IMG/VR virus record: IMGVR_UViG_3300030294_000003
Length of the DNA stretch: 64,000 nt
Reading direction: 5' to 3' (one strand)
DNA from: a virus
Lineage: Duplodnaviria; Heunggongvirae; Uroviricota; Caudoviricetes
This document shows positions 36,221 through 63,602 of this stretch, one piece after another; within the stretch, counting starts at the first letter, position 1, and the number at the start of each line of letters is the position of its first letter. The notes below the pieces were generated by a model that made no database searches, was not told the origin of the DNA, and saw only the letters and a program-made list of their open reading frames with translations. The position numbers and the translations under genes were made by a program.

Positions 36221-36409
36221 TTATTCACCAAAAATTTTTATTTTGTATTTTCCAGCTTTATTCAATATTTTATGCCTTAACTCTTATGTTATCTCACCAC
36301 TTTCTGACAGGTTATCAATTTCTACGAGGATTAAATGTCTACTTTCTTCAAGATATTTACAATATTCTTCAGAAGTCAAAACTCCAGCAATAATTTTTTC
36401 GTTTTTCAT
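36221..36409 (-). pseudogene. Small ORF with one internal TAA (or a 41-aa ORF)
   Basis: ATGA overlap with Clp stop; MKNEKII...SGEIT*ELRHKILNKAGKYKIKIFGE; TAA at 36284-36286. Confidence 0.4.
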
Positions 36410-38886
36410 TTAATTTCGATTTTATTATTATTTATATTCACATTAAATATATATCCATTTTCTAATTCATTTTCCAAGTATATATCACAAATAACATTTT
36501 CAATTTCATTTTCAATGGCCCTATTGATCTTTCGTGCACCACTGTTTTTATCTGAACCGATTGTTTTAAATAAATAGTCCGTAACATCATCTCCAAATTC
36601 AACATCAAAATTAATCTCATTCAAACGTTTTTTTAATTTACTCAATTCTAACTCGATAATTGATTTTAAGTTGTCTTCGGTTAATGAGTTGAAATAAATA
36701 ACGTCATTAAGTCTACTAATGAATTCTGGCGGAAACTTACCTTTGAGGGCTTTTTCAATTATATTCTTTTTATTATCTTCCACATTTATTTGAAAACCAG
36801 TTCCGCGACCTAATGAAGCCGCATCTTTTGCGCCAACGTTCGATGTCATAATAATAATAACATTTTTAAATGAAACACGAACACCTGTATTATCGGTAGC
36901 AAAACTTTCATCAAAAATCTGTAAAAATATATTATAAACATCATTATGAGCCTTTTCAATTTCATCCAGTAATAATACACAATATGGCTTGTTTTTAATG
37001 GCTTCCGTTAATAAACCACCTTGATCATACCCAACGAATCCACTTCCAGTTCCAACCATCTTATTTACAGCTGTTTGGTCAGAGTATTCGCTCATATCAA
37101 ATCTAACTAAAGCATCTTCACTACCAAATATTTCTTCAGCTAATTTTTTAGCTAAAAAAGTTTTTCCACACCCAGATTCCCCAACAAACATAAAAACTCC
37201 ATTAGGCTTATTTTTTCTACCAAGTCCCATTCGGCTTCTTTTCATGGATTGAGCAACCTTTTTAATCGCTTCCGATTGGCCGATTATACTTTCACCTAAT
37301 TTGTTTTCAATGTTTAAATAACGTTCCTTCTCCGAAGTAGTCAACCTATTAATTGGGACACCTGTCATTTCAGATACAATATTAAACACATCGATTTCAG
37401 TAATTTCTTTAATATTATTCTTAGATTGTGATTTTTTATTTTTTTCTAAATCTACTATCTTACCTTCTATTTCAATACATATTAAATTATAACCATCACC
37501 AATATCAAAATTATTTTCTGAGTATGCTTCTTTGACGTTTAACTTATTTAATTCAAGCTCTTTCTTTAATTCAAAAAGTTCCGATTCATTGTATAGGTTA
37601 GAAACCTTTTTTTCTGAGCCGCATTCGTCCATTATATCAATTGCTGAGTCTGGAAGGTGCCTTTCTGTGATATATTTATTTGCAAGCGTTACACAAGCTC
37701 TAATGGCTTCGTCCGTATAGCTTACATTATGATACTTTTCATAGTATTTTTTTGAATTAAATAATATCTTCTCTGTTTGTTCAATTGTTGTTGAAGTAAT
37801 AACGCTTTTTTGAAATTTTCTGTTTAAAGATGGTTCGTTCTCTATCGAATTTTTATATCCTTTAAAGGATGTCGTTGCTATTAATTGAATATCACCATCT
37901 ATCATGGCCTTTGATAATATACCACCAATATCAGACGCATTATTGGAATTTGATGATAATACAGAATGAATATCATCGATAAATAACATATAATTTTTAT
38001 TGGCTTTTATTTCATTTATAACACCATTCAATCTCTCTTCGAGCATCCCTCTGAATGAAGTACCAGCTATTAAAGATGATAAGTCTAAAGATAAAATTTC
38101 TTTCCCATTAAGAAACATACCCTTACCCTCTTCTATCATATTAGCCAAGCCGTAAATTATAGCACTCTTGCCAACACCCCCATCACCAACTAAAATTATG
38201 TTATTTTTATTTCTTCTACCAAGAATTTTTATTAAACGATTAATTTCAACTTCTCTACCAACTATTTGATCTATTTTACCTTGTTTTGCTAATGTATTTA
38301 AATTAGTACAATACAATTTAATCATATTTGCTTTACCAGATGGTTTATTTTTCTGGCCTTGTATTGTTTCTACATAGCTTTGGTTTGTATTTTCATTTTG
38401 TTCGTCAAATTTGGCTATTTCACCTTGTTTTATAGTATTAATGGTATTGAATAGGTTATCATATTTTAGACCAACGTGAGTTAGTTTTGATATATCTTTA
38501 ACATTTGAAAGTATTGATAATAATACGTGTTCAGACCCTATCTTAATATCGTTTAATTTTTCTTTTTCTGTATTAGCAGCTATTAAACAATTACTAAAAA
38601 CTAAATCGAATCCTATTGATTTTTCAATATTATTTAATACTTTCGGCTTAAAAGTGGTCGCAGATAATTCTTTTAATAATTCAGAAAAATAAACTAACAA
38701 ATCATTTATATCATCTTTTGCTAAAAATTTTATCAACATTTTATATGCTATTGATTGTTTTGATTGCAAAATCGCCAGCATAAAATATTCAATGGTTATC
38801 TTTTTGGTAGGAAAGTCTTCAACTAAATCTTTAGTTACTAATGCCAATACTTTTTTTAATTCAGTTGTATATTTATTTTCTTCCAT
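36406..38886 (-). CDS. clpC: ClpA/ClpC-type AAA+ chaperone ATPase
   Basis: Clp-N-like N-terminus, GDGGVGKS, FIDDIH, GESGCGKT, RFDMSEY, LLDEIEKAH, GARKINR. Confidence 0.9.
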   Translation of the reverse strand: MEENKYTTELKKVLALVTKDLVEDFPTKKITIEYFMLAILQSKQSIAYKMLIKFLAKDDINDLLVYFSELLKELSATTFKPKVLNNIEKSIGFDLVFSNCLIAANTEKEKLNDIKIGSEHVLLSILSNVKDISKLTHVGLKYDNLFNTINTIKQGEIAKFDEQNENTNQSYVETIQGQKNKPSGKANMIKLYCTNLNTLAKQGKIDQIVGREVEINRLIKILGRRNKNNIILVGDGGVGKSAIIYGLANMIEEGKGMFLNGKEILSLDLSSLIAGTSFRGMLEERLNGVINEIKANKNYMLFIDDIHSVLSSNSNNASDIGGILSKAMIDGDIQLIATTSFKGYKNSIENEPSLNRKFQKSVITSTTIEQTEKILFNSKKYYEKYHNVSYTDEAIRACVTLANKYITERHLPDSAIDIMDECGSEKKVSNLYNESELFELKKELELNKLNVKEAYSENNFDIGDGYNLICIEIEGKIVDLEKNKKSQSKNNIKEITEIDVFNIVSEMTGVPINRLTTSEKERYLNIENKLGESIIGQSEAIKKVAQSMKRSRMGLGRKNKPNGVFMFVGESGCGKTFLAKKLAEEIFGSEDALVRFDMSEYSDQTAVNKMVGTGSGFVGYDQGGLLTEAIKNKPYCVLLLDEIEKAHNDVYNIFLQIFDESFATDNTGVRVSFKNVIIIMTSNVGAKDAASLGRGTGFQINVEDNKKNIIEKALKGKFPPEFISRLNDVIYFNSLTEDNLKSIIELELSKLKKRLNEINFDVEFGDDVTDYLFKTIGSDKNSGARKINRAIENEIENVICDIYLENELENGYIFNVNINNNKIEIK

Positions 38887-43088: not shown

Positions 43089-44654
43089 TTATTTTAATAT
43101 TGTATATTCAGAATTTGGTCCCAAATAAAAAATATGTTGAAATTTTCCATCGTTATGTAAAATAATATCACTATGAACCCAAGCGCTTGCTGAGTGGTTA
43201 TATCCTAATCGTTTATCACAATTACACCCCACCTGGGCACTACCATCATATCTAAGTGCATTATGTCCATGTGCTGTAATAACCTTTATATTTAGCGATT
43301 TAAATTGTTTGGCGTTGCCTCGTGAACCTCCAATCCCATCAGATCCATGACAAGCAAGTTCCACTCCTTTAACAATATAACTATCATCTCTACCAAAACA
43401 TTTAATTTCTGGAAATCTTTTTTCGATAATATAAGCTAACAGTCCTTTTGGTGCTTTATCTTCTAATAAGACTTTTGCATATTCTAAATATTGTAGTGTG
43501 TTCATACCAGCTTTTTTAATATCACTATCAATAATAAATGATTCTAAAAAACGATCATGATTTGAGTTTACAATTCGAATATTTAAATGTTTGATTTTTT
43601 CTAAAAACTGCATTGCACCTTCAATTTCTTTTTCGACTGATCCTAATCCATCTTCCTGATTTCTAAAAACTTTAACGAAATTATTGGCTTCATGATGGTT
43701 AATTGATCTAAAATCTATTAAATCATGTAAAAATATTTCATTTGGGTTTAATTTTGGTACTAAATCTTCAAATCCCATTCTGTGAACATTTTTATCTACA
43801 AATGGATAATGCGTATCCCCTTTTATTAATGCTGGCACACTTTTATTTCTTGAAATATTTTCATTATCTACGTGATACCATAAATCATTGAATGAACCAT
43901 TATCTTTTCCAGTTATTTGTCTCGCATAAAATTCTTTACCATCTTTTTCAATTAATAATGCACCATACGTTGAATGGAATTCTGAAATTTTTCCAATTTT
44001 TGTTTTTGTGAAATTAGGTTTTGATAAAGTACCTGTTGTGAACATTAACTTTGGCCTATCACCAAATACTGGCAAACTTTTCATATGTATCCTTGGGCTT
44101 GCAACACAACACGAGTGTTCTCCTGTCATACTTTCCAAATTGGTTAATGGCATAATTGCTGTTGGTGAAATAACAACATCTGAAAGTATTGAGAAATTTT
44201 CATTTATATTGTGCCTATTTAATGTTAAGTAGTCTTCAACTTCTTTTGGCCACCACATATCACCATCTTCTTTAATCACCAATGGGTTTGTTGGGTTATG
44301 ATATGTGTATGGAATTACAAGTATCTGCGCATCTAAATATTCAGCGTATGTTTTTAAATTATTCCAAAAACTTAAATTAATCTTACTGGCATTTTGTACG
44401 GCTGTAATTAAAAAGAATTTTTTATCGCTATTTAATTCCTTCGTTTTGGCTACTTCTAATTGTTCTGTTGAAACAGTTCCTTCCACTCTTTCTTTCAAAC
44501 CAAGTTTTTCACTACACCACCTACGTAATTGTCTTTCTGAAATTGAAAATTTATTACAAAGATCAACCATTCTATCGTCCCAACTAAGATCTTTATTCTT
44601 ATAAACACTTGCAATATATTCCTTATCCTCTTCTGTTAATTTCTTAAATTTCAT
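43089..44654 (-). CDS. Large metallophosphoesterase-like protein with N-terminal HTH-like segment
   Basis: GDTH, LHDLIDF, SNHD, CHG, AHGH motifs; N-terminal CNKFSISERQLRRW. Confidence 0.7.
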   Translation of the reverse strand: MKFKKLTEEDKEYIASVYKNKDLSWDDRMVDLCNKFSISERQLRRWCSEKLGLKERVEGTVSTEQLEVAKTKELNSDKKFFLITAVQNASKINLSFWNNLKTYAEYLDAQILVIPYTYHNPTNPLVIKEDGDMWWPKEVEDYLTLNRHNINENFSILSDVVISPTAIMPLTNLESMTGEHSCCVASPRIHMKSLPVFGDRPKLMFTTGTLSKPNFTKTKIGKISEFHSTYGALLIEKDGKEFYARQITGKDNGSFNDLWYHVDNENISRNKSVPALIKGDTHYPFVDKNVHRMGFEDLVPKLNPNEIFLHDLIDFRSINHHEANNFVKVFRNQEDGLGSVEKEIEGAMQFLEKIKHLNIRIVNSNHDRFLESFIIDSDIKKAGMNTLQYLEYAKVLLEDKAPKGLLAYIIEKRFPEIKCFGRDDSYIVKGVELACHGSDGIGGSRGNAKQFKSLNIKVITAHGHNALRYDGSAQVGCNCDKRLGYNHSASAWVHSDIILHNDGKFQHIFYLGPNSEYTILK

Positions 44655-44677
44655 TCTTAATTTTGTTTTTAACTTCT

Positions 44678-45043
44678 TTATTTTAGTTTTAATAAATTAC
44701 CCATTACATGGTTATTAATTGATGTAGCCATTTCCCAACCTAATCTATCTTCCATAAACTTAAATTCTGGCATATTATCCATTTGTTCTGTTGTGATCGG
44801 AAACTCATCTTCTATTATTTCTCGTTGTATATTAACCATCCCAGCTTGACATATTGTATACATTTCATATAGTTCAGCCTCAGTTGCTTCAATTAGCTGA
44901 CTAAAATACCACTCCCAATGATCACCAATCCCACCAACATAAGTACCATATTTTTTAATTAATGGGTGTTCGAAAGCTCCATAATGTGGTTCAGTACCTT
45001 TAACTAGCGATAATAACCCTTTTTTATCTAAATATACGATCAT
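44678..45043 (-). CDS. Hypothetical protein
   Basis: Start MIVYLDK at ATGA overlap with upstream stop. Confidence 0.6.
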   Translation of the reverse strand: MIVYLDKKGLLSLVKGTEPHYGAFEHPLIKKYGTYVGGIGDHWEWYFSQLIEATEAELYEMYTICQAGMVNIQREIIEDEFPITTEQMDNMPEFKFMEDRLGWEMATSINNHVMGNLLKLK

Positions 45044-45426
45044 AATTCGCAAATGTCTTCAGTTCTGTTTAGTAACTCTTTTTTCTCAATATCAATCTCA
45101 TCAATTCTATTTCTAATATCAATTAATAATTTTGTCTTTAATTCTGTAATCGTAGGTGCAAAGACTGGAAACCCATTATCTATAACATTTCCGTCATTTG
45201 AAAATATATAATCTAAATTATCACAAATTCTATAGGAATATATTTCAACCTCATTAAATATTAATTCTTCAATATTAAATTTTTGTTCATCAAAACAGTA
45301 CCATTTATTACTTTTTAATAATTTTATATGTGTTGGTGAACGATTGGTAGCAAATAATTCTATATTTTCTGATAGCCATTCTTTATCTAATAATTTAGAT
45401 ACATCCTCTAATTCTATTGTTTTCAT
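45040..45426 (-). CDS. Hypothetical protein
   Basis: 128-aa ORF. Confidence 0.6.
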   Translation of the reverse strand: MKTIELEDVSKLLDKEWLSENIELFATNRSPTHIKLLKSNKWYCFDEQKFNIEELIFNEVEIYSYRICDNLDYIFSNDGNVIDNGFPVFAPTITELKTKLLIDIRNRIDEIDIEKKELLNRTEDICEL

Positions 45427-45433
45427 TTTTTAT

Positions 45434-45844
45434 TTAATTTATTGATTGGTATTTATTAAATAATTCACTTAAAGTTACTCTGTTTTGTTGGGCTAAGTCT
45501 ACTGTTAGAGCACAAATATTCCTTTCAGATGATAGGTCCAATTCGGTGTTTATATATTCAATTAAATTACTATATTTATTAATAATATTAGCTCCTTTCC
45601 AAGCATAAATCCAGTGCCCATTAATAGAAAATCGTTTATTGACTGATCCTATATTTGACCCTTCGCTATATCTCCACCAGCCCCAATTGCCTTCCCAGAT
45701 TTGATCATCTAACGCTTCTAACTTATTATATTCGATATCTTCTAATTCCCATACTTGGTAATAACCACCATTGTGAGTTTTGCTGGCTTCAATTCCCAGT
45801 ATTTTAAATGTTAAGTCTAAATTTCCACCTATTATTTCTTTCAT
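45434..45844 (-). CDS. Conserved hypothetical protein
   Basis: WGWWRYSEGSN motif. Confidence 0.65.
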   Translation of the reverse strand: MKEIIGGNLDLTFKILGIEASKTHNGGYYQVWELEDIEYNKLEALDDQIWEGNWGWWRYSEGSNIGSVNKRFSINGHWIYAWKGANIINKYSNLIEYINTELDLSSERNICALTVDLAQQNRVTLSELFNKYQSIN

Positions 45845-46185
45845 TACGACATACCCTCCCCATTTAAATATCTTGAAGCAATATAATCAGAATCAAAACA
45901 ATTCAAACCATCGGGAGGGATTGGTAACGTATATTCTTCATTATCCACATCCAATTTCCACTGACCATCACTTCCAAACGGAATATACCAGTTGTTATGT
46001 ACCCAATCTAAAAAATCTGATAACTCTTCTTTTTTATTAATACTGATAGACAACTCTCCAGCCCATTCAAATTTACCTTTATATTTATCATAATCTAAAA
46101 TACCTAAATCACCACCACTTGCAATAAACGTTGTATTCAAATGTGTGTTTAAAATAATTGTTTTTCCTGGTTTTATTTCTTCCAT
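45844..46185 (-). CDS. Hypothetical protein
   Basis: 113-aa ORF. Confidence 0.6.
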   Translation of the reverse strand: MEEIKPGKTIILNTHLNTTFIASGGDLGILDYDKYKGKFEWAGELSISINKKEELSDFLDWVHNNWYIPFGSDGQWKLDVDNEEYTLPIPPDGLNCFDSDYIASRYLNGEGMS

Positions 46186-49717: not shown

Positions 49718-50071
49718 TTAAAATGGGAGATCATCTACTTCCGATGGTGCTTGTGTTGTGGTCTTTTGTGTTGTATCAGGCATTTCCTGAGATCCTCCTG
49801 TGTTATTAATTTTCCACACATTTAAACTATTATATGTCTTACCATTGTAGTCGTTTGTTTTTGCGTTATATAATACTTCAACAATAGCACCTACTGATAA
49901 AGTATCTACAATTTCTTGTTTATTTAATGCACTAAAAATAATTGAATTTGGGTGTTCACCCTCTGTTTCTTCTACTCTGATAGTTGTATTGGACCATTCC
50001 CCATTTTTACCAGTTCCTGATTGTGTAACACCAATTTCTGTAATTTTACCCGAAAAACTTAAATTTGCCAT
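49718..50071 (-). CDS. DUF3127-like OB-fold single-stranded DNA-binding protein
   Basis: GKI......G....GEW, YNGK.YNSL..WKI, acidic DDLPF tail. Confidence 0.8.
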   Translation of the reverse strand: MANLSFSGKITEIGVTQSGTGKNGEWSNTTIRVEETEGEHPNSIIFSALNKQEIVDTLSVGAIVEVLYNAKTNDYNGKTYNSLNVWKINNTGGSQEMPDTTQKTTTQAPSEVDDLPF

Positions 50072-50110: not shown

Positions 50111-50260
50111 ATTTTAGAGTTTCTTCCACCATACTCTCACACTATTACCTCCCACATCTGGTGTTACTGATCCTAATTTTAGAGTATCTTCCACCAAATC
50201 GTTTTCCGACGACCTGTCTTCCAAGGTGTTACTGATCCTAATTTTAGAGTATCTTCCACC
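50111..50260. CRISPR. Cas-less CRISPR-like mini-array: 2 full + 1 partial 36-bp repeats, two 29-bp spacers
   Basis: GGTGTTACTGATCCTAATTTTAGAGTATCTTCCACC identical at 50160-50195 and 50225-50260; 20-bp remnant with 1 mismatch at 50111-50130; unique spacers 50131-50159 and 50196-50224. Confidence 0.65.
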
Positions 50261-50604
50261 CTGTCTTTTATAAAGGACTGAGTTTCATTATAATTAAGAC
50301 CGAAGTTACTTCCAAAAACTGACCAAATTTTATCATAATGAACATAGAAATACCTTTTTTCTTTATTTTCTGAATCCTGATATAATTCAAAAATAACTTC
50401 ATCATTTTTATTATCTTTATAAAATACAGAATTAGGATATTCAGGTTTAATAACAATTGATAAATCGATTAAAAAACAACGAAAGAAATCCTCCATTTCT
50501 TTATTCTTATCTATTTTGATAAAATCAATAATTATTTTATTATCATTATATTTAATTAATTTTTTATATTCATTTGGAATATTTATTTCTATTAAATTTT
50601 TCAT
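50179..50604 (-). CDS. Hypothetical protein whose C-terminus is encoded by the mini-array
   Basis: ...QSFIKDR-VEDTLKLGSVTP (repeat)-WKTGRRKTIW (spacer)-WKIL*. Confidence 0.75.
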   Translation of the reverse strand: MKNLIEINIPNEYKKLIKYNDNKIIIDFIKIDKNKEMEDFFRCFLIDLSIVIKPEYPNSVFYKDNKNDEVIFELYQDSENKEKRYFYVHYDKIWSVFGSNFGLNYNETQSFIKDRVEDTLKLGSVTPWKTGRRKTIWWKIL

Positions 50605-50613
50605 ATATTTATT

Positions 50614-50967
50614 TTATATTAATTCTATTAAATTAAAGTCCAGTAATTTCACAAGAAATACTTGACCTTCATCTTTCAATATGAATAATTTTACCATTGG
50701 TAGTTCTTTATTACTTTGTATTTTAACTTCAACTAAATTTTGTAAATCGTAGAACCTTTGCAATATATTATGGGTTCTATATTTTAATCCATTTTTTTCA
50801 TTCACTTCTAAATCAAAATATAAATACTCAAAATCAGAAATTGCAAATTTTCTTTTGAATATACCTTCCATTTCAGTTATATACCCATTATCATCCATAT
50901 AATTAAATATGGCGAATTTCATAGGTTTAAAACCCTTTTCTTTTATTTGTTTTATTAATTCTTGCAT
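50614..50967 (-). CDS. Hypothetical protein
   Basis: 117-aa ORF. Confidence 0.55.
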   Translation of the reverse strand: MQELIKQIKEKGFKPMKFAIFNYMDDNGYITEMEGIFKRKFAISDFEYLYFDLEVNEKNGLKYRTHNILQRFYDLQNLVEVKIQSNKELPMVKLFILKDEGQVFLVKLLDFNLIELI

Positions 50968-61184: not shown

Positions 61185-63602
61185 TTATTGGTTATTACCA
61201 TTAATTTCTATTTTAGCGGATGAAATATTTTTCTGTTTGTCGATTCGGACGGTAGTGCTATGCCAATCCTTAATAGAATCCAGATGGGTGACGTGTAAAA
61301 TGAATTGATAATCCTTTTCAATTTTCTTATACATTTCTCTCATGTTATCATAGTTCTCACTCGCAACTCCGCCAAGAATTTCATCTAAAATTAAAAAGTT
61401 TGGTCTTGGCATTGTTGATATATTCCCAAGAACACATCTTAAAGCCAGCGCCGATGCTGTTTTTTCGAAACCAGACGCACCGCCCAAACTTGATGCCACA
61501 TCATCTTTAATTATATTAAAAACTACCTCGTTTTTATCTGTTAAAGCAACTTCAATGTCAAAATCACAAACATCTTCCAAAAGTCTACTTAATTCGGAAT
61601 TTATAATTGGTAGTGTTTTCTTTAACACCATTTTCGAAATACCATTTTTACCAACCATTTCTAAATAAGCTTTCCAATCTCTGATTAAAATAGCTTCAGT
61701 ATTAATTTCTTTAATTAATAACTCATTTGTTTTAATTTTTTTATCTAATTCAACAATATTCCTTTCGAAATTTTCAATTTCTCTTAATTTGGCATCTCTT
61801 TCTATTGTAAGTGATCTAATTTTTGCATTGATGTTTATTAGACTGATATCTATCTGATTATTCTTTTCAATTGCACCCTTATTTTCATTAAAATCTTTAA
61901 TTTTTTGTTCATTTTCTTTGTATTGAGATAATAAATTTTGAATTTGGACTGGTATTATTTCAATTAAACCTATTAATTTTGCTTTTTTATCGAAAGTTTT
62001 TTTATTATTTTCTAATTCAATAATTTCAGATTTAGTTGTATTTAAATTATTAGCTGATGTTATTCCAGATTTTTTTAATTCTTCTATTTTTAATTCGTTT
62101 TGTGATATTGCACCAGAATTATCCAAACCATCATATTTCCTTTTACATGTTGGGCAAAACTCGCTTTTAGTTAAATTTTCGTTTGTTAATTTTAATGTGG
62201 TAATTTTATTTTTTATATTACTTATTTCAATTGAAATTTCTTTATCTAAATTAATCTTACCCTTATAAATAATTTCATCGAATGTAATATCTTTTAATAG
62301 TTCAAACTCTGATTTATATCCAGCTAATTCTAATCGTTTAGATGCACCTTCTTGTTTTATTTTTTCAATTCTACCGTTTACCGTATTAATATCTAATTTT
62401 AATATATTTTGATCGATTTGTTTTTTTGAAAGTAATAATGTGTCCTTGGATTGCTGTTCGATTTCTGTTAACTTATTTAGCTCAGTAACTCTGGTTTTCG
62501 ATAAATTAATATTTTCATTATTTGTTTTGATAGAGATATTATTGTTTTCAATTACCGAAGTTAATTCTATTTTATCATATAACTTTGATTTTAAACCTTT
62601 TTCAAATTCTTTATATTTATCCTTTGCAAATTTATCTTTTTCCTCCAGTGGTGATAATCCTACCCATTTAGATAATAATTTACCTGTTTCTGTTTTACCC
62701 ATTTCAATTAGAGAGAATAGATCAGTAGCAGTTGTCATTACAATCATTCCAAAATCTTTTTCGTTACCGATAGCTTCTTTTATTATTTTATTGGTTTTTA
62801 CTGAATACTCACCCTGTTCGTTTGAAATAGAATCCGTTAATTCTTCCTTTTCACCATTTATTATTTGGTAATATTTAACCTTTTGTGATGCATCTCCCCA
62901 TTCACCAGTACGTTTTTTTGCTCTTGTAACTACTCGTTCAATTACATAAGTTAACCCGTCTATTTTAATACCACCACATACATTAAAGGTTGTAACATCT
63001 AAATATTTATTGAAACATTCTGATAACGTGTATGGCTTTTGAGTTTTTCCGAAGTATAAAAATGATACTAAATCCATAGCGAAACTAGTTTTTCCGTTTT
63101 GATTTCCACTAGTTACTCCGTCTATACTACCATTCAAAAGAATTAAGCCTTTTAAGTCTGTATAATCAAACCTATTATCTGGACCGTAACTTAGGAAATT
63201 GCTCCATTCAATCCATTCCAATTCAGATTTTCTAAACTTTTCATAAACATCGTAATCAATTTTGGAATTTATCTCAGAATCAATAACCTTTATATGTTCA
63301 AAATCAATATTCTCGATTTTATTATCGATAATGTAATCATTAAATAGTTTTAATTGAAATTTTGGATCTTGAATATTATTTATAACCTCGGACGAAACAT
63401 CTATTTGTTCTCCTTTTTCATTTAATTTGATCGCATTAAAAGAAACTTTTACCGATTCTTTTGGTATTCCATATCTATCGGCAAATGTCGATATAATATG
63501 TTTTTTTGATTCATGAGAATAGTTAATTGGATTGTCGTTCCATTCAACATTGATTTTTGATTTCTTCCCTACTTTAACTCTATATTTATTATTTACTGAC
63601 AT
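61185..63602 (-). CDS. sbcC: SbcC/Rad50 (T4 gp46-like) recombination ATPase
   Basis: NFLSYG, GNQNGKTS Walker A, CPTC zinc hook, ASGFEK signature, LILDE, VTH. Confidence 0.9.
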   Translation of the reverse strand: MSVNNKYRVKVGKKSKINVEWNDNPINYSHESKKHIISTFADRYGIPKESVKVSFNAIKLNEKGEQIDVSSEVINNIQDPKFQLKLFNDYIIDNKIENIDFEHIKVIDSEINSKIDYDVYEKFRKSELEWIEWSNFLSYGPDNRFDYTDLKGLILLNGSIDGVTSGNQNGKTSFAMDLVSFLYFGKTQKPYTLSECFNKYLDVTTFNVCGGIKIDGLTYVIERVVTRAKKRTGEWGDASQKVKYYQIINGEKEELTDSISNEQGEYSVKTNKIIKEAIGNEKDFGMIVMTTATDLFSLIEMGKTETGKLLSKWVGLSPLEEKDKFAKDKYKEFEKGLKSKLYDKIELTSVIENNNISIKTNNENINLSKTRVTELNKLTEIEQQSKDTLLLSKKQIDQNILKLDINTVNGRIEKIKQEGASKRLELAGYKSEFELLKDITFDEIIYKGKINLDKEISIEISNIKNKITTLKLTNENLTKSEFCPTCKRKYDGLDNSGAISQNELKIEELKKSGITSANNLNTTKSEIIELENNKKTFDKKAKLIGLIEIIPVQIQNLLSQYKENEQKIKDFNENKGAIEKNNQIDISLININAKIRSLTIERDAKLREIENFERNIVELDKKIKTNELLIKEINTEAILIRDWKAYLEMVGKNGISKMVLKKTLPIINSELSRLLEDVCDFDIEVALTDKNEVVFNIIKDDVASSLGGASGFEKTASALALRCVLGNISTMPRPNFLILDEILGGVASENYDNMREMYKKIEKDYQFILHVTHLDSIKDWHSTTVRIDKQKNISSAKIEINGNNQ

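Follow-up and report, generated by a model that had tools for sequence, protein, structure and literature searches.

A Cas-less CRISPR-type array at the 3′ coding end of a small phage gene

A repeat-spacer array at the end of gene X

The stretch of phage DNA analysed here (64,000 nucleotides (nt), hereafter the window) is part of the IMG/VR virus record IMGVR_UViG_3300030294_000003, which is 147 kb long with 28% G+C and a CheckV completeness of 41%; the phage was found in at least 19 peat-metagenome runs. [quoted passage not shown] Repeat 1 (50225..50260), ORF-proximal and on the leader side, is 36 nt long and encodes VEDTLKLGSVTP; it is followed by the proximal spacer A (50196..50224; 29 nt, 13/29 or 45% G+C), which is translated as the tail of the protein. 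Repeat 2 (50160..50195) is identical to repeat 1 at 36/36 positions and is read in another frame, as WWKIL and a stop codon. Beyond it lie the distal spacer B (50131..50159; 29 nt, 12/29 or 41% G+C) and, at the trailer end, a truncated terminal repeat (50111..50130) that keeps the first 20 nt in the ORF-sense orientation with 19/20 matches, the rest being AT-rich. The period is 65 nt, and spacers A and B are unrelated to each other.

A first-pass annotation made from the letters alone had described two identical 36-bp repeats, a 20-bp remnant and 29-bp spacers at this locus. These coordinates were reproduced, as were its spacer G+C counts (12/29 and 13/29 in a genome of ~28% G+C), the complementary repeat termini GGTG/CACC, and its translation, in which the in-frame proximal repeat reads VEDTLKLGSVTP, the spacer reads WKTGRRKTIW, and the 65-nt period then shifts the frame and introduces a stop. 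With up to three mismatches allowed, the repeat is matched twice in the window versus 0.00 times expected from 100 shuffles, and the array is the sole periodic array of the whole 147-kb record. Its terminal repeat is truncated as in three related loci (L004, L014 and L005). A simple tandem duplication was ruled out because the two 29-nt inserts are unrelated. The variable region of a diversity-generating retroelement (DGR), an alternative named in the first-pass annotation, was also excluded: no template-like copy of either spacer exists in the 147 kb at up to 8 mismatches, and the spacers of homologues are unrelated. An Rfam scan of the region returned no CRISPR-DR family, only a chance snoRNA match. 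The earlier classification as a CRISPR-type, Cas-less array stands, with repeats, unique spacers of constant length, polarity and a protospacer all found. The locus is a true repeat-spacer array of CRISPR type, with no cas genes, seeded on the 3′ coding end of gene X.

Residues 1 to ~127 of X make up a folded alpha/beta domain, and the last 14 derive from the spacer and the out-of-frame repeat 2. An AlphaFold2 model based on 129 homologues shows this domain with confidence (predicted local distance difference test (pLDDT) 94.8), and in it repeat 1, codons 116-127, encodes the final part of the last helix (residues 105-120) together with the terminal loop. The translated tail has a pLDDT of ~88, a confidence that is likely an alignment artefact. 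No Pfam family matches X. Fold relatives were searched for in PDB with Foldseek (best E 0.05), VIA-wide (best Z 4.1) and in the Atlas (none), and a search of AFDB returned only two uncharacterised members of X's own family; as modelled, the fold is an orphan. Among 185,579 prokaryote species, each represented by one genome, X had no relatives. The family has no conserved polar residues, and a single Trp is nearly invariant.

The upstream gene (50614..50967, minus strand) ends with a stop codon only 9 nt ahead of the start of X, a spacing which suggests that X and its array are read in sense orientation within one multi-gene transcript. A gap of 40 nt separates the array from the operon's next gene, a member of the Pfam family DUF3127 (49718..50071, minus strand), and no terminator is predicted between them. 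Two stretches around the start of X, at 50585-50622 and 50539-50574, have ~87% matches to many other contigs of the peat runs and look like a reiterated AT-rich element, possibly a promoter or punctuation motif. The Bacteroidota promoter TTTG-N17-21-TAnnTTTG occurs 9 times in the window versus 5.9 expected and is not enriched.

The X family and the turnover of its arrays

Eleven close homologues of X were identified. When 1.84 billion representatives were searched with a profile built from them, 1,159 clusters were recovered at E<=1e-3, so X belongs to a family of small phage proteins that counts 1,159 sequence clusters or more. All 11 close homologues end with the motif encoded by the repeat, then ~10 residues that vary, then a second repeat. 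In tails whose frame remains open, this second repeat is seen either as the motif once more (at a 66-nt period) or, shifted by one frame, as [RW]WK[IT][LFP] (at a 65-nt period). The same tails occur in the 159 cluster representatives inspected, and for nearly every family member examined the final ~12 codons double as an array's first repeat.

The DNA of ~25 loci recovered from ENA and JGI metagenomes contains 36-nt repeats separated by unique spacers of 29 or 30 nt. Arrays have 2-10 repeats, mostly 2-4; a salt-lake phage (L032) has the most, 10, and L031 has at least 7. The 36 spacers of the relatives are almost all 29-30 nt long (three are 27-28 nt) and mutually unrelated except for one duplicated spacer. 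The first-pass annotation had suggested checking whether homologues consistently end in such arrays, and they do, in 36-nt repeats with differing 29/30-nt spacers. Both L031 and L032 have a geometry of 36 + 30, and in L032 the repeat is still 36 nt although the protein motif is one codon shorter, as would be expected of a molecular ruler and not of a protein motif. Across loci, decayed or truncated repeats are always distal to X, which places the body of X on the leader side. This bears out two earlier proposals, that the ORF body occupies the leader position and that the degenerate repeat marks the trailer end, and the polarity is the same in the relatives. An AT-rich non-coding leader was not found, and the coding body of X sits in its place. 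In one subfamily (MVEQHLKLG) many arrays are decaying. Both the exact and a degenerate 36-mer found a single relative in IMG/VR, and a looser 24-nt pattern found just chance matches there, in unrelated genes.

Several loci carry more than one copy of X. Tandem paralogues, each with its own mini-array, lie ~520-540 nt apart in L021 (3259-4949), in L022/L023 (one 40-kb contig) and in L020 (1115 and 1639). The arrays of two neighbouring paralogues share one identical 27-nt spacer, and these arrays were therefore duplicated along with their genes. Some proteins contain repeated X domains, with 6 copies in P0013 (760 aa), 5 in P0021 (588 aa) and 3 in P0015 (346 aa), and such poly-X proteins arise where the frame continues across in-frame arrays and on into the neighbouring paralogue. 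In L004 a lone 36-mer resembling the repeat (484-519; 31/36 identical) closes the gene upstream of X and may mark a paralogue that has lost its array. In one homologue seemingly without an array (L003, 4334-4440, the same as L017), the protein runs on past the C-terminal motif, and by eye this continuation contains a second, decayed copy of the stretch coding for the motif.

At any one locus the repeats mostly agree at 36/36 positions, and differences between loci fall mainly at third codon positions of the X frame. These patterns indicate that repeat 1 changes in the manner of coding sequence and that the copies downstream keep up with it, as in CRISPR adaptation, where each event copies the leader-proximal repeat. 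Between L006 and L016, identity is 97% over the gene and 95% over the downstream flank, yet they have 2 and 3 spacers with none in common; each array is homogeneous for its own repeat variant, and L016 shows variation at repeat position 1. Arrays thus change faster than their flanks diverge. When salt-lake runs were compared with the L032 array, fragmentary contigs hinted that only the trailer-end spacers are common to strains, but gaps in contig data prove nothing.

Repeat structure, spacer origin and other genes of the record

Over 21 variants of the repeat, 81% of cells in a 4-bp terminal stem and an inner hairpin of 6 bp are paired, versus 35-46% for slid partners. Covariation exceeds that of all 500 shuffles, with compensatory pairs at 2-35, 11-26, 12-25, 13-24 and 14-23; kinship inflates these figures, yet the changes fall between subfamilies and inside codons. 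Pair 2-35 covaries as GC in 17 sequences and UA in 2. The repeat ends of the window, GGUG/CACC, are complementary and non-canonical, L031 and L033 have GUUG/CAAC or a near form, and the leader-distal ends of the phage repeats are the complement of GGTGT or GTTGT. The window geometry of 36 + 29 is equivalent to 35 + 30, because the protospacer match described below spans 30 nt and L016 varies at repeat position 1. The decay polarity, the absent terminator and the operon context suggest that the array is transcribed in sense, and counts of G-U versus A-C oppositions weakly favour the same strand (22 vs 15).

In several respects the phage arrays resemble the type VI-B arrays of Bacteroidota, whose published definition names repeats of 36 nt, spacers of 30 nt, ends that pair as GUUG/CAAC, and a loop of poly-U (10.1101/092577). 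The first-pass annotation had likewise matched the geometry to Bacteroidota arrays, and the 36/30 spacing is indeed that of VI-B and also of Flavobacterium columnare II-C (PMC8092290; 10.1101/092577). When aligned without gaps, the phage repeats match the F. columnare VI-B repeat (PMC5395568, Table 4) at 15-23/36 positions, compared with a shuffle mean of 10.5, and the II-C repeat of that species at 8-16/36. The window repeat matches VI-B at 17/36 (shuffle p ~0.009), and L012, L031 and L032 at 20-23/36 (p < 5e-5). The likeness to VI-B (10.1101/092577; PMC8092290; PMC5395568) covers 36-nt repeats with ~30-nt spacers, complementary 4-nt ends (in the window of the covarying, non-canonical form) and a small inner hairpin with a homopolymer-rich loop, as well as the existence of arrays that have no cas1/cas2 of their own and are, in the phage probably, filled in trans. 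Unlike VI-B loci, the phage record has no cas13b, csx27 or csx28 among the ORFs scanned, its leader position is a protein-coding gene with a translated repeat 1, and it belongs to a lytic-type phage rather than a bacterial chromosome. The repeat loop is A-rich on the ORF-sense strand and U-rich on the antisense strand only, so that the poly-U loop lies opposite the expected transcript, and the window repeat variant occurs in none of the 185,579 species genomes. Because cas genes and a bacterial repeat match are absent, the poly-U loop is antisense and the indications of strand conflict, the array was filed as VI-B-like and not as a member of VI-B. Since cas13b (with csx27/csx28) was not found, it would be at most a VI-B-like satellite and not a VI-B locus.

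The spacers differ from their surroundings in composition, with a mean G+C of 36% versus 27% for the loci (paired p = 3e-5). A protospacer search, which the first-pass annotation had proposed, was carried out by aligning Logan contigs of four peat runs (X4, X10, X11 and X12) to the region. For spacer A it succeeded: in all four runs, positions 50195-50224 (spacer A plus position 50195) have a 30/30 match in a separate contig. This contig is 583-589 nt long in each run, its flanks are unrelated to the window and have 40% G+C, within the top 7% of G+C for the phage genome, and one single-nucleotide polymorphism distinguishes samples. Its depth roughly follows that of the phage in 3/4 runs. The protospacer lies either in another replicon or in an unsampled part of the phage's own genome. 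For spacer B, the older of the two, the same check gave no match in the phage's own 147 kb, phage records, IMG/VR or the four peat runs. Protospacers were absent altogether from the 147 kb and from the collected relative loci, a search of IMG/VR with 24-25-mers of four spacers found none, and 50,697 cultured-phage records gave chance-level matches only. Taken at face value, composition and match point to spacers that are foreign DNA. In ORF sense, the 3′ flank of the protospacer reads G-AAT-GGTGAAGAGACTTTA and resembles the start of the repeat (13/15 with one gap); this likeness, which would matter if spacers were captured by homology, is probably due to chance (shuffle p ~0.04, in one of several comparisons).

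Elsewhere in the record, an 839-aa DnaB-like helicase at 43368-45887 of the record, outside the window, has LAGLIDADG and homing-endonuclease domains and probably contains an intein. Two further large proteins resemble parts of defence systems by their profile matches, namely an 805-aa protein at ~61185-63602 of the window (minus strand) with a PADLOC LmuB-like match (6.6e-10), and an 826-aa AAA ATPase at ~36406-38886 of the window that matches PDC-M37B and DolB (2.7e-30).

Possible origin and use of the array

On balance, we find it somewhat probable that the locus as a whole is a Cas-less CRISPR array on the end of gene X, filled by a host Cas1-Cas2 acting in trans and probably feeding a host Cas13b. 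The integration step is quite likely: a Cas1-Cas2 integrase in trans would insert spacers during infection, the end of gene X would serve as leader and first repeat, and repeat 1 would be copied at each event. Since each integration would make a fresh copy of repeat 1, an array could remain uniform even as repeat 1 changes like other coding sequence. Both the ruler of 36/30 and the motif GGTGT/GTTGT at the repeat end away from the leader fit the type II-C adaptation module that serves Cas1-less VI-B arrays in Flavobacterium. In F. columnare, the Cas1-Cas2 of the II-C system acts in trans to fill a VI-B array that lacks Cas1, although the leaders and repeats of the two systems differ except for a leader-distal GTTGT (PMC8092290). 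The next step, for which we see slightly less than an even chance, is that transcription of the early operon takes in the array and that the resulting units end up on a host effector, most likely Cas13b. The phage would thereby bring guides against a co-resident replicon, be it a competing phage, some other mobile element or the host itself, and/or swamp Cas13b with guides of its own. The presumed Bacteroidota host is assigned from the repeat type.

Several observations weigh against this account. Cas1 and Cas2 were not found in the whole 147-kb record, no Cas families (Pfam, PADLOC) were found in the 20 scanned ORFs of at least 637 aa (of 21 ORFs of at least 450 aa), and no cas1, cas2 or effector was found near L005, L006, L032 or L033, so that every Cas step is hypothetical. 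The earlier statement that the window has no cas gene thereby extends to the full 147 kb for Cas1/Cas2 and to the 20 scanned large ORFs for Cas families. The search for the repeat in bacterial genomes that the first-pass annotation had recommended was also negative, as a degenerate 36-mer covering all subfamily variants had 0 matches in one genome each of the 185,579 prokaryote species; no host-identical repeat was found, and the host may be one without a sequenced genome. None of the RNA runs found contains the array region. The VI-B poly-U loop is antisense to X, whereas polarity and operon context point to sense. Synonymous sites are hardly more conserved in the repeat (0.75) than in the rest of the gene (0.69-0.71), and there is therefore little sign of a repeat sequence strictly imposed by a partner. 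Some arrays are static across samples: the window array is identical in the four peat runs, and in the P0004 array both spacers are identical in five marine samples, with a truncated sixth contig showing the first. Finally, a single protospacer was found, and its depth roughly tracks the phage, so its source may be the phage's own unsampled genome.

Other explanations have to be weighed against host-driven acquisition. We regard it as unlikely that the array is a neutral by-product, in which the 3′ end of X mimics a leader-repeat junction and ectopic integrations pile up and are tolerated, with no function for the phage. Off-target Cas1-Cas2 integration that makes new arrays is documented (Nivala 2018, cited in PMC7054753), and the resulting neo-CRISPR loci (Nivala, Shipman and Church 2018, cited in PMC7054753) share with the X arrays a native non-CRISPR sequence duplicated around an integrated spacer. 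Whatever use the array has, an origin of this type is the most economical for a repeat that is a gene's coding end. A neutral status would also agree with a repeat that evolves essentially as coding sequence, the missing host repeat match, the many decaying MVEQHLKLG arrays, and first-spacer tails that often stop early (P0003, P0004, P0005 and P0008). As the citing paper presents them, however, neo-CRISPR loci are rare laboratory events at scattered sites, whereas the X site is reused across >1,000 lineages with a CRISPR-like RNA structure kept. At least 1,159 clusters retain the design, as do tandem paralogues with their own arrays, compensatory changes keep the RNA-type stem and hairpin despite the codon position, VI-B likeness endures across diverged subfamilies, and an accidental target would easily be lost by synonymous changes. 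Less probable still is a decoy or sponge, with repeats that act as RNA or DNA mimics to soak up host Cas13b or the adaptation complex, and with incidental spacers. CRISPR-inhibiting phage repeat mimics, the RNA anti-CRISPRs (Racrs), are known (PMC10651486), as are crRNA-like RNAs of viruses, which compete for Cas proteins (10.1101/2024.10.29.618823); like the X arrays, both are phage-encoded copies of CRISPR repeats that could engage host Cas. The predicted position of gene X in an early multi-gene transcript and the many tandem copies in relatives would suit such a role. Racrs are solitary and intergenic, whereas the X arrays lie within and beyond an ORF as full units of repeat, spacer and repeat whose spacers change, and in the survey of Racrs and solitary repeat units (SRUs), which masked ORFs, neither viruses nor plasmids yielded a solitary repeat of type VI (PMC10651486). 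A decoy would have no need for intact repeat-spacer-repeat units, fresh spacers or a perfect match to contemporary DNA.

The first-pass annotation had also proposed that spacer acquisition rewrites the end of the protein to functional effect, and we consider it very unlikely that the system works at this level, whether by diversifying the C-terminal ~10 residues of X or by translation of whole in-frame arrays. Spacers are open in the coding frame of the repeat in 24/32 cases versus 14-15/32 in the other two frames, the first spacer is read through in 112/156 cluster representatives versus ~47% expected, fusion proteins such as P0013 run through in-frame arrays, and the tail is modelled by AlphaFold2 with the confidence given above. 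However, the 112/156 figure is probably biased, since cluster representatives may be the longest members. In the X subfamily of the window only the first spacer is translated, and first spacers are open in the ORF frame at 8/12 loci, which does not differ significantly from the same ~47%. The tails vary in length from 0 to >30 residues, and no property of them is conserved. At 65 nt, the subfamily's commonest period always puts the reading frame out, and in L032 half of the array is found past the stop codon; on these two grounds a protein-level tandem repeat was ruled out as well. The functional part of the earlier proposal was not supported, nor was its further option that the ORF product binds the array, and the rewriting of the last ~10 residues of X at each acquisition, which is real, is probably tolerated rather than used. 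A phage-autonomous system without Cas proteins, in which X or another phage protein binds the repeat and makes or uses the array, is improbable to the same degree. Gene and array are strictly linked across the family, the fold of X is an orphan, and the family is missing from the prokaryote genomes searched. X nevertheless offers no conserved polar residues beside its near-invariant Trp, is with ~115 aa much smaller than any known integrase, and has arrays whose 36/30 geometry, end motifs and decay polarity are exactly those of Cas1-Cas2 products. Finally, we give a low probability to a reading in which the phage owns a heritable library of spacers, made up of gene X and its array, with the gene end as an evolved landing pad for host Cas1-Cas2 and with tail rewriting or repeat binding by X as part of the function; if true, this would be a coupled module of nucleic-acid and protein diversification with no known counterpart.

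To return to acquisition by host enzymes, the nearest described elements include the viral mini-arrays of SPV1/SPV2 and others (PMC6858448; PMC11656645), which are also Cas-less, have one or two spacers, presumably depend on host machinery, and have at least one spacer matching co-occurring foreign DNA. Unlike the X arrays, known mini-arrays have host-identical repeats, sit between genes and mostly target close relatives of their carrier, whereas the phage X repeat is the gene's own 3′ end and evolves with the gene. No paper was found in the literature on viral arrays whose first repeat is the coding end of a gene, and the gene-embedded array is real and widespread, and as a kind of virus-borne CRISPR array it is apparently undescribed. 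It would be a natural case of one sequence serving as codon string, RNA hairpin and integrase target. Surveys that mask ORFs, such as the SRU/Racr survey, would then systematically miss a class of viral CRISPR elements. If host enzymes routinely write spacers at such a gene-end pad, viruses would hold updatable guide libraries without the cost of cas genes, and CRISPR adaptation would be exploitable by its own targets.

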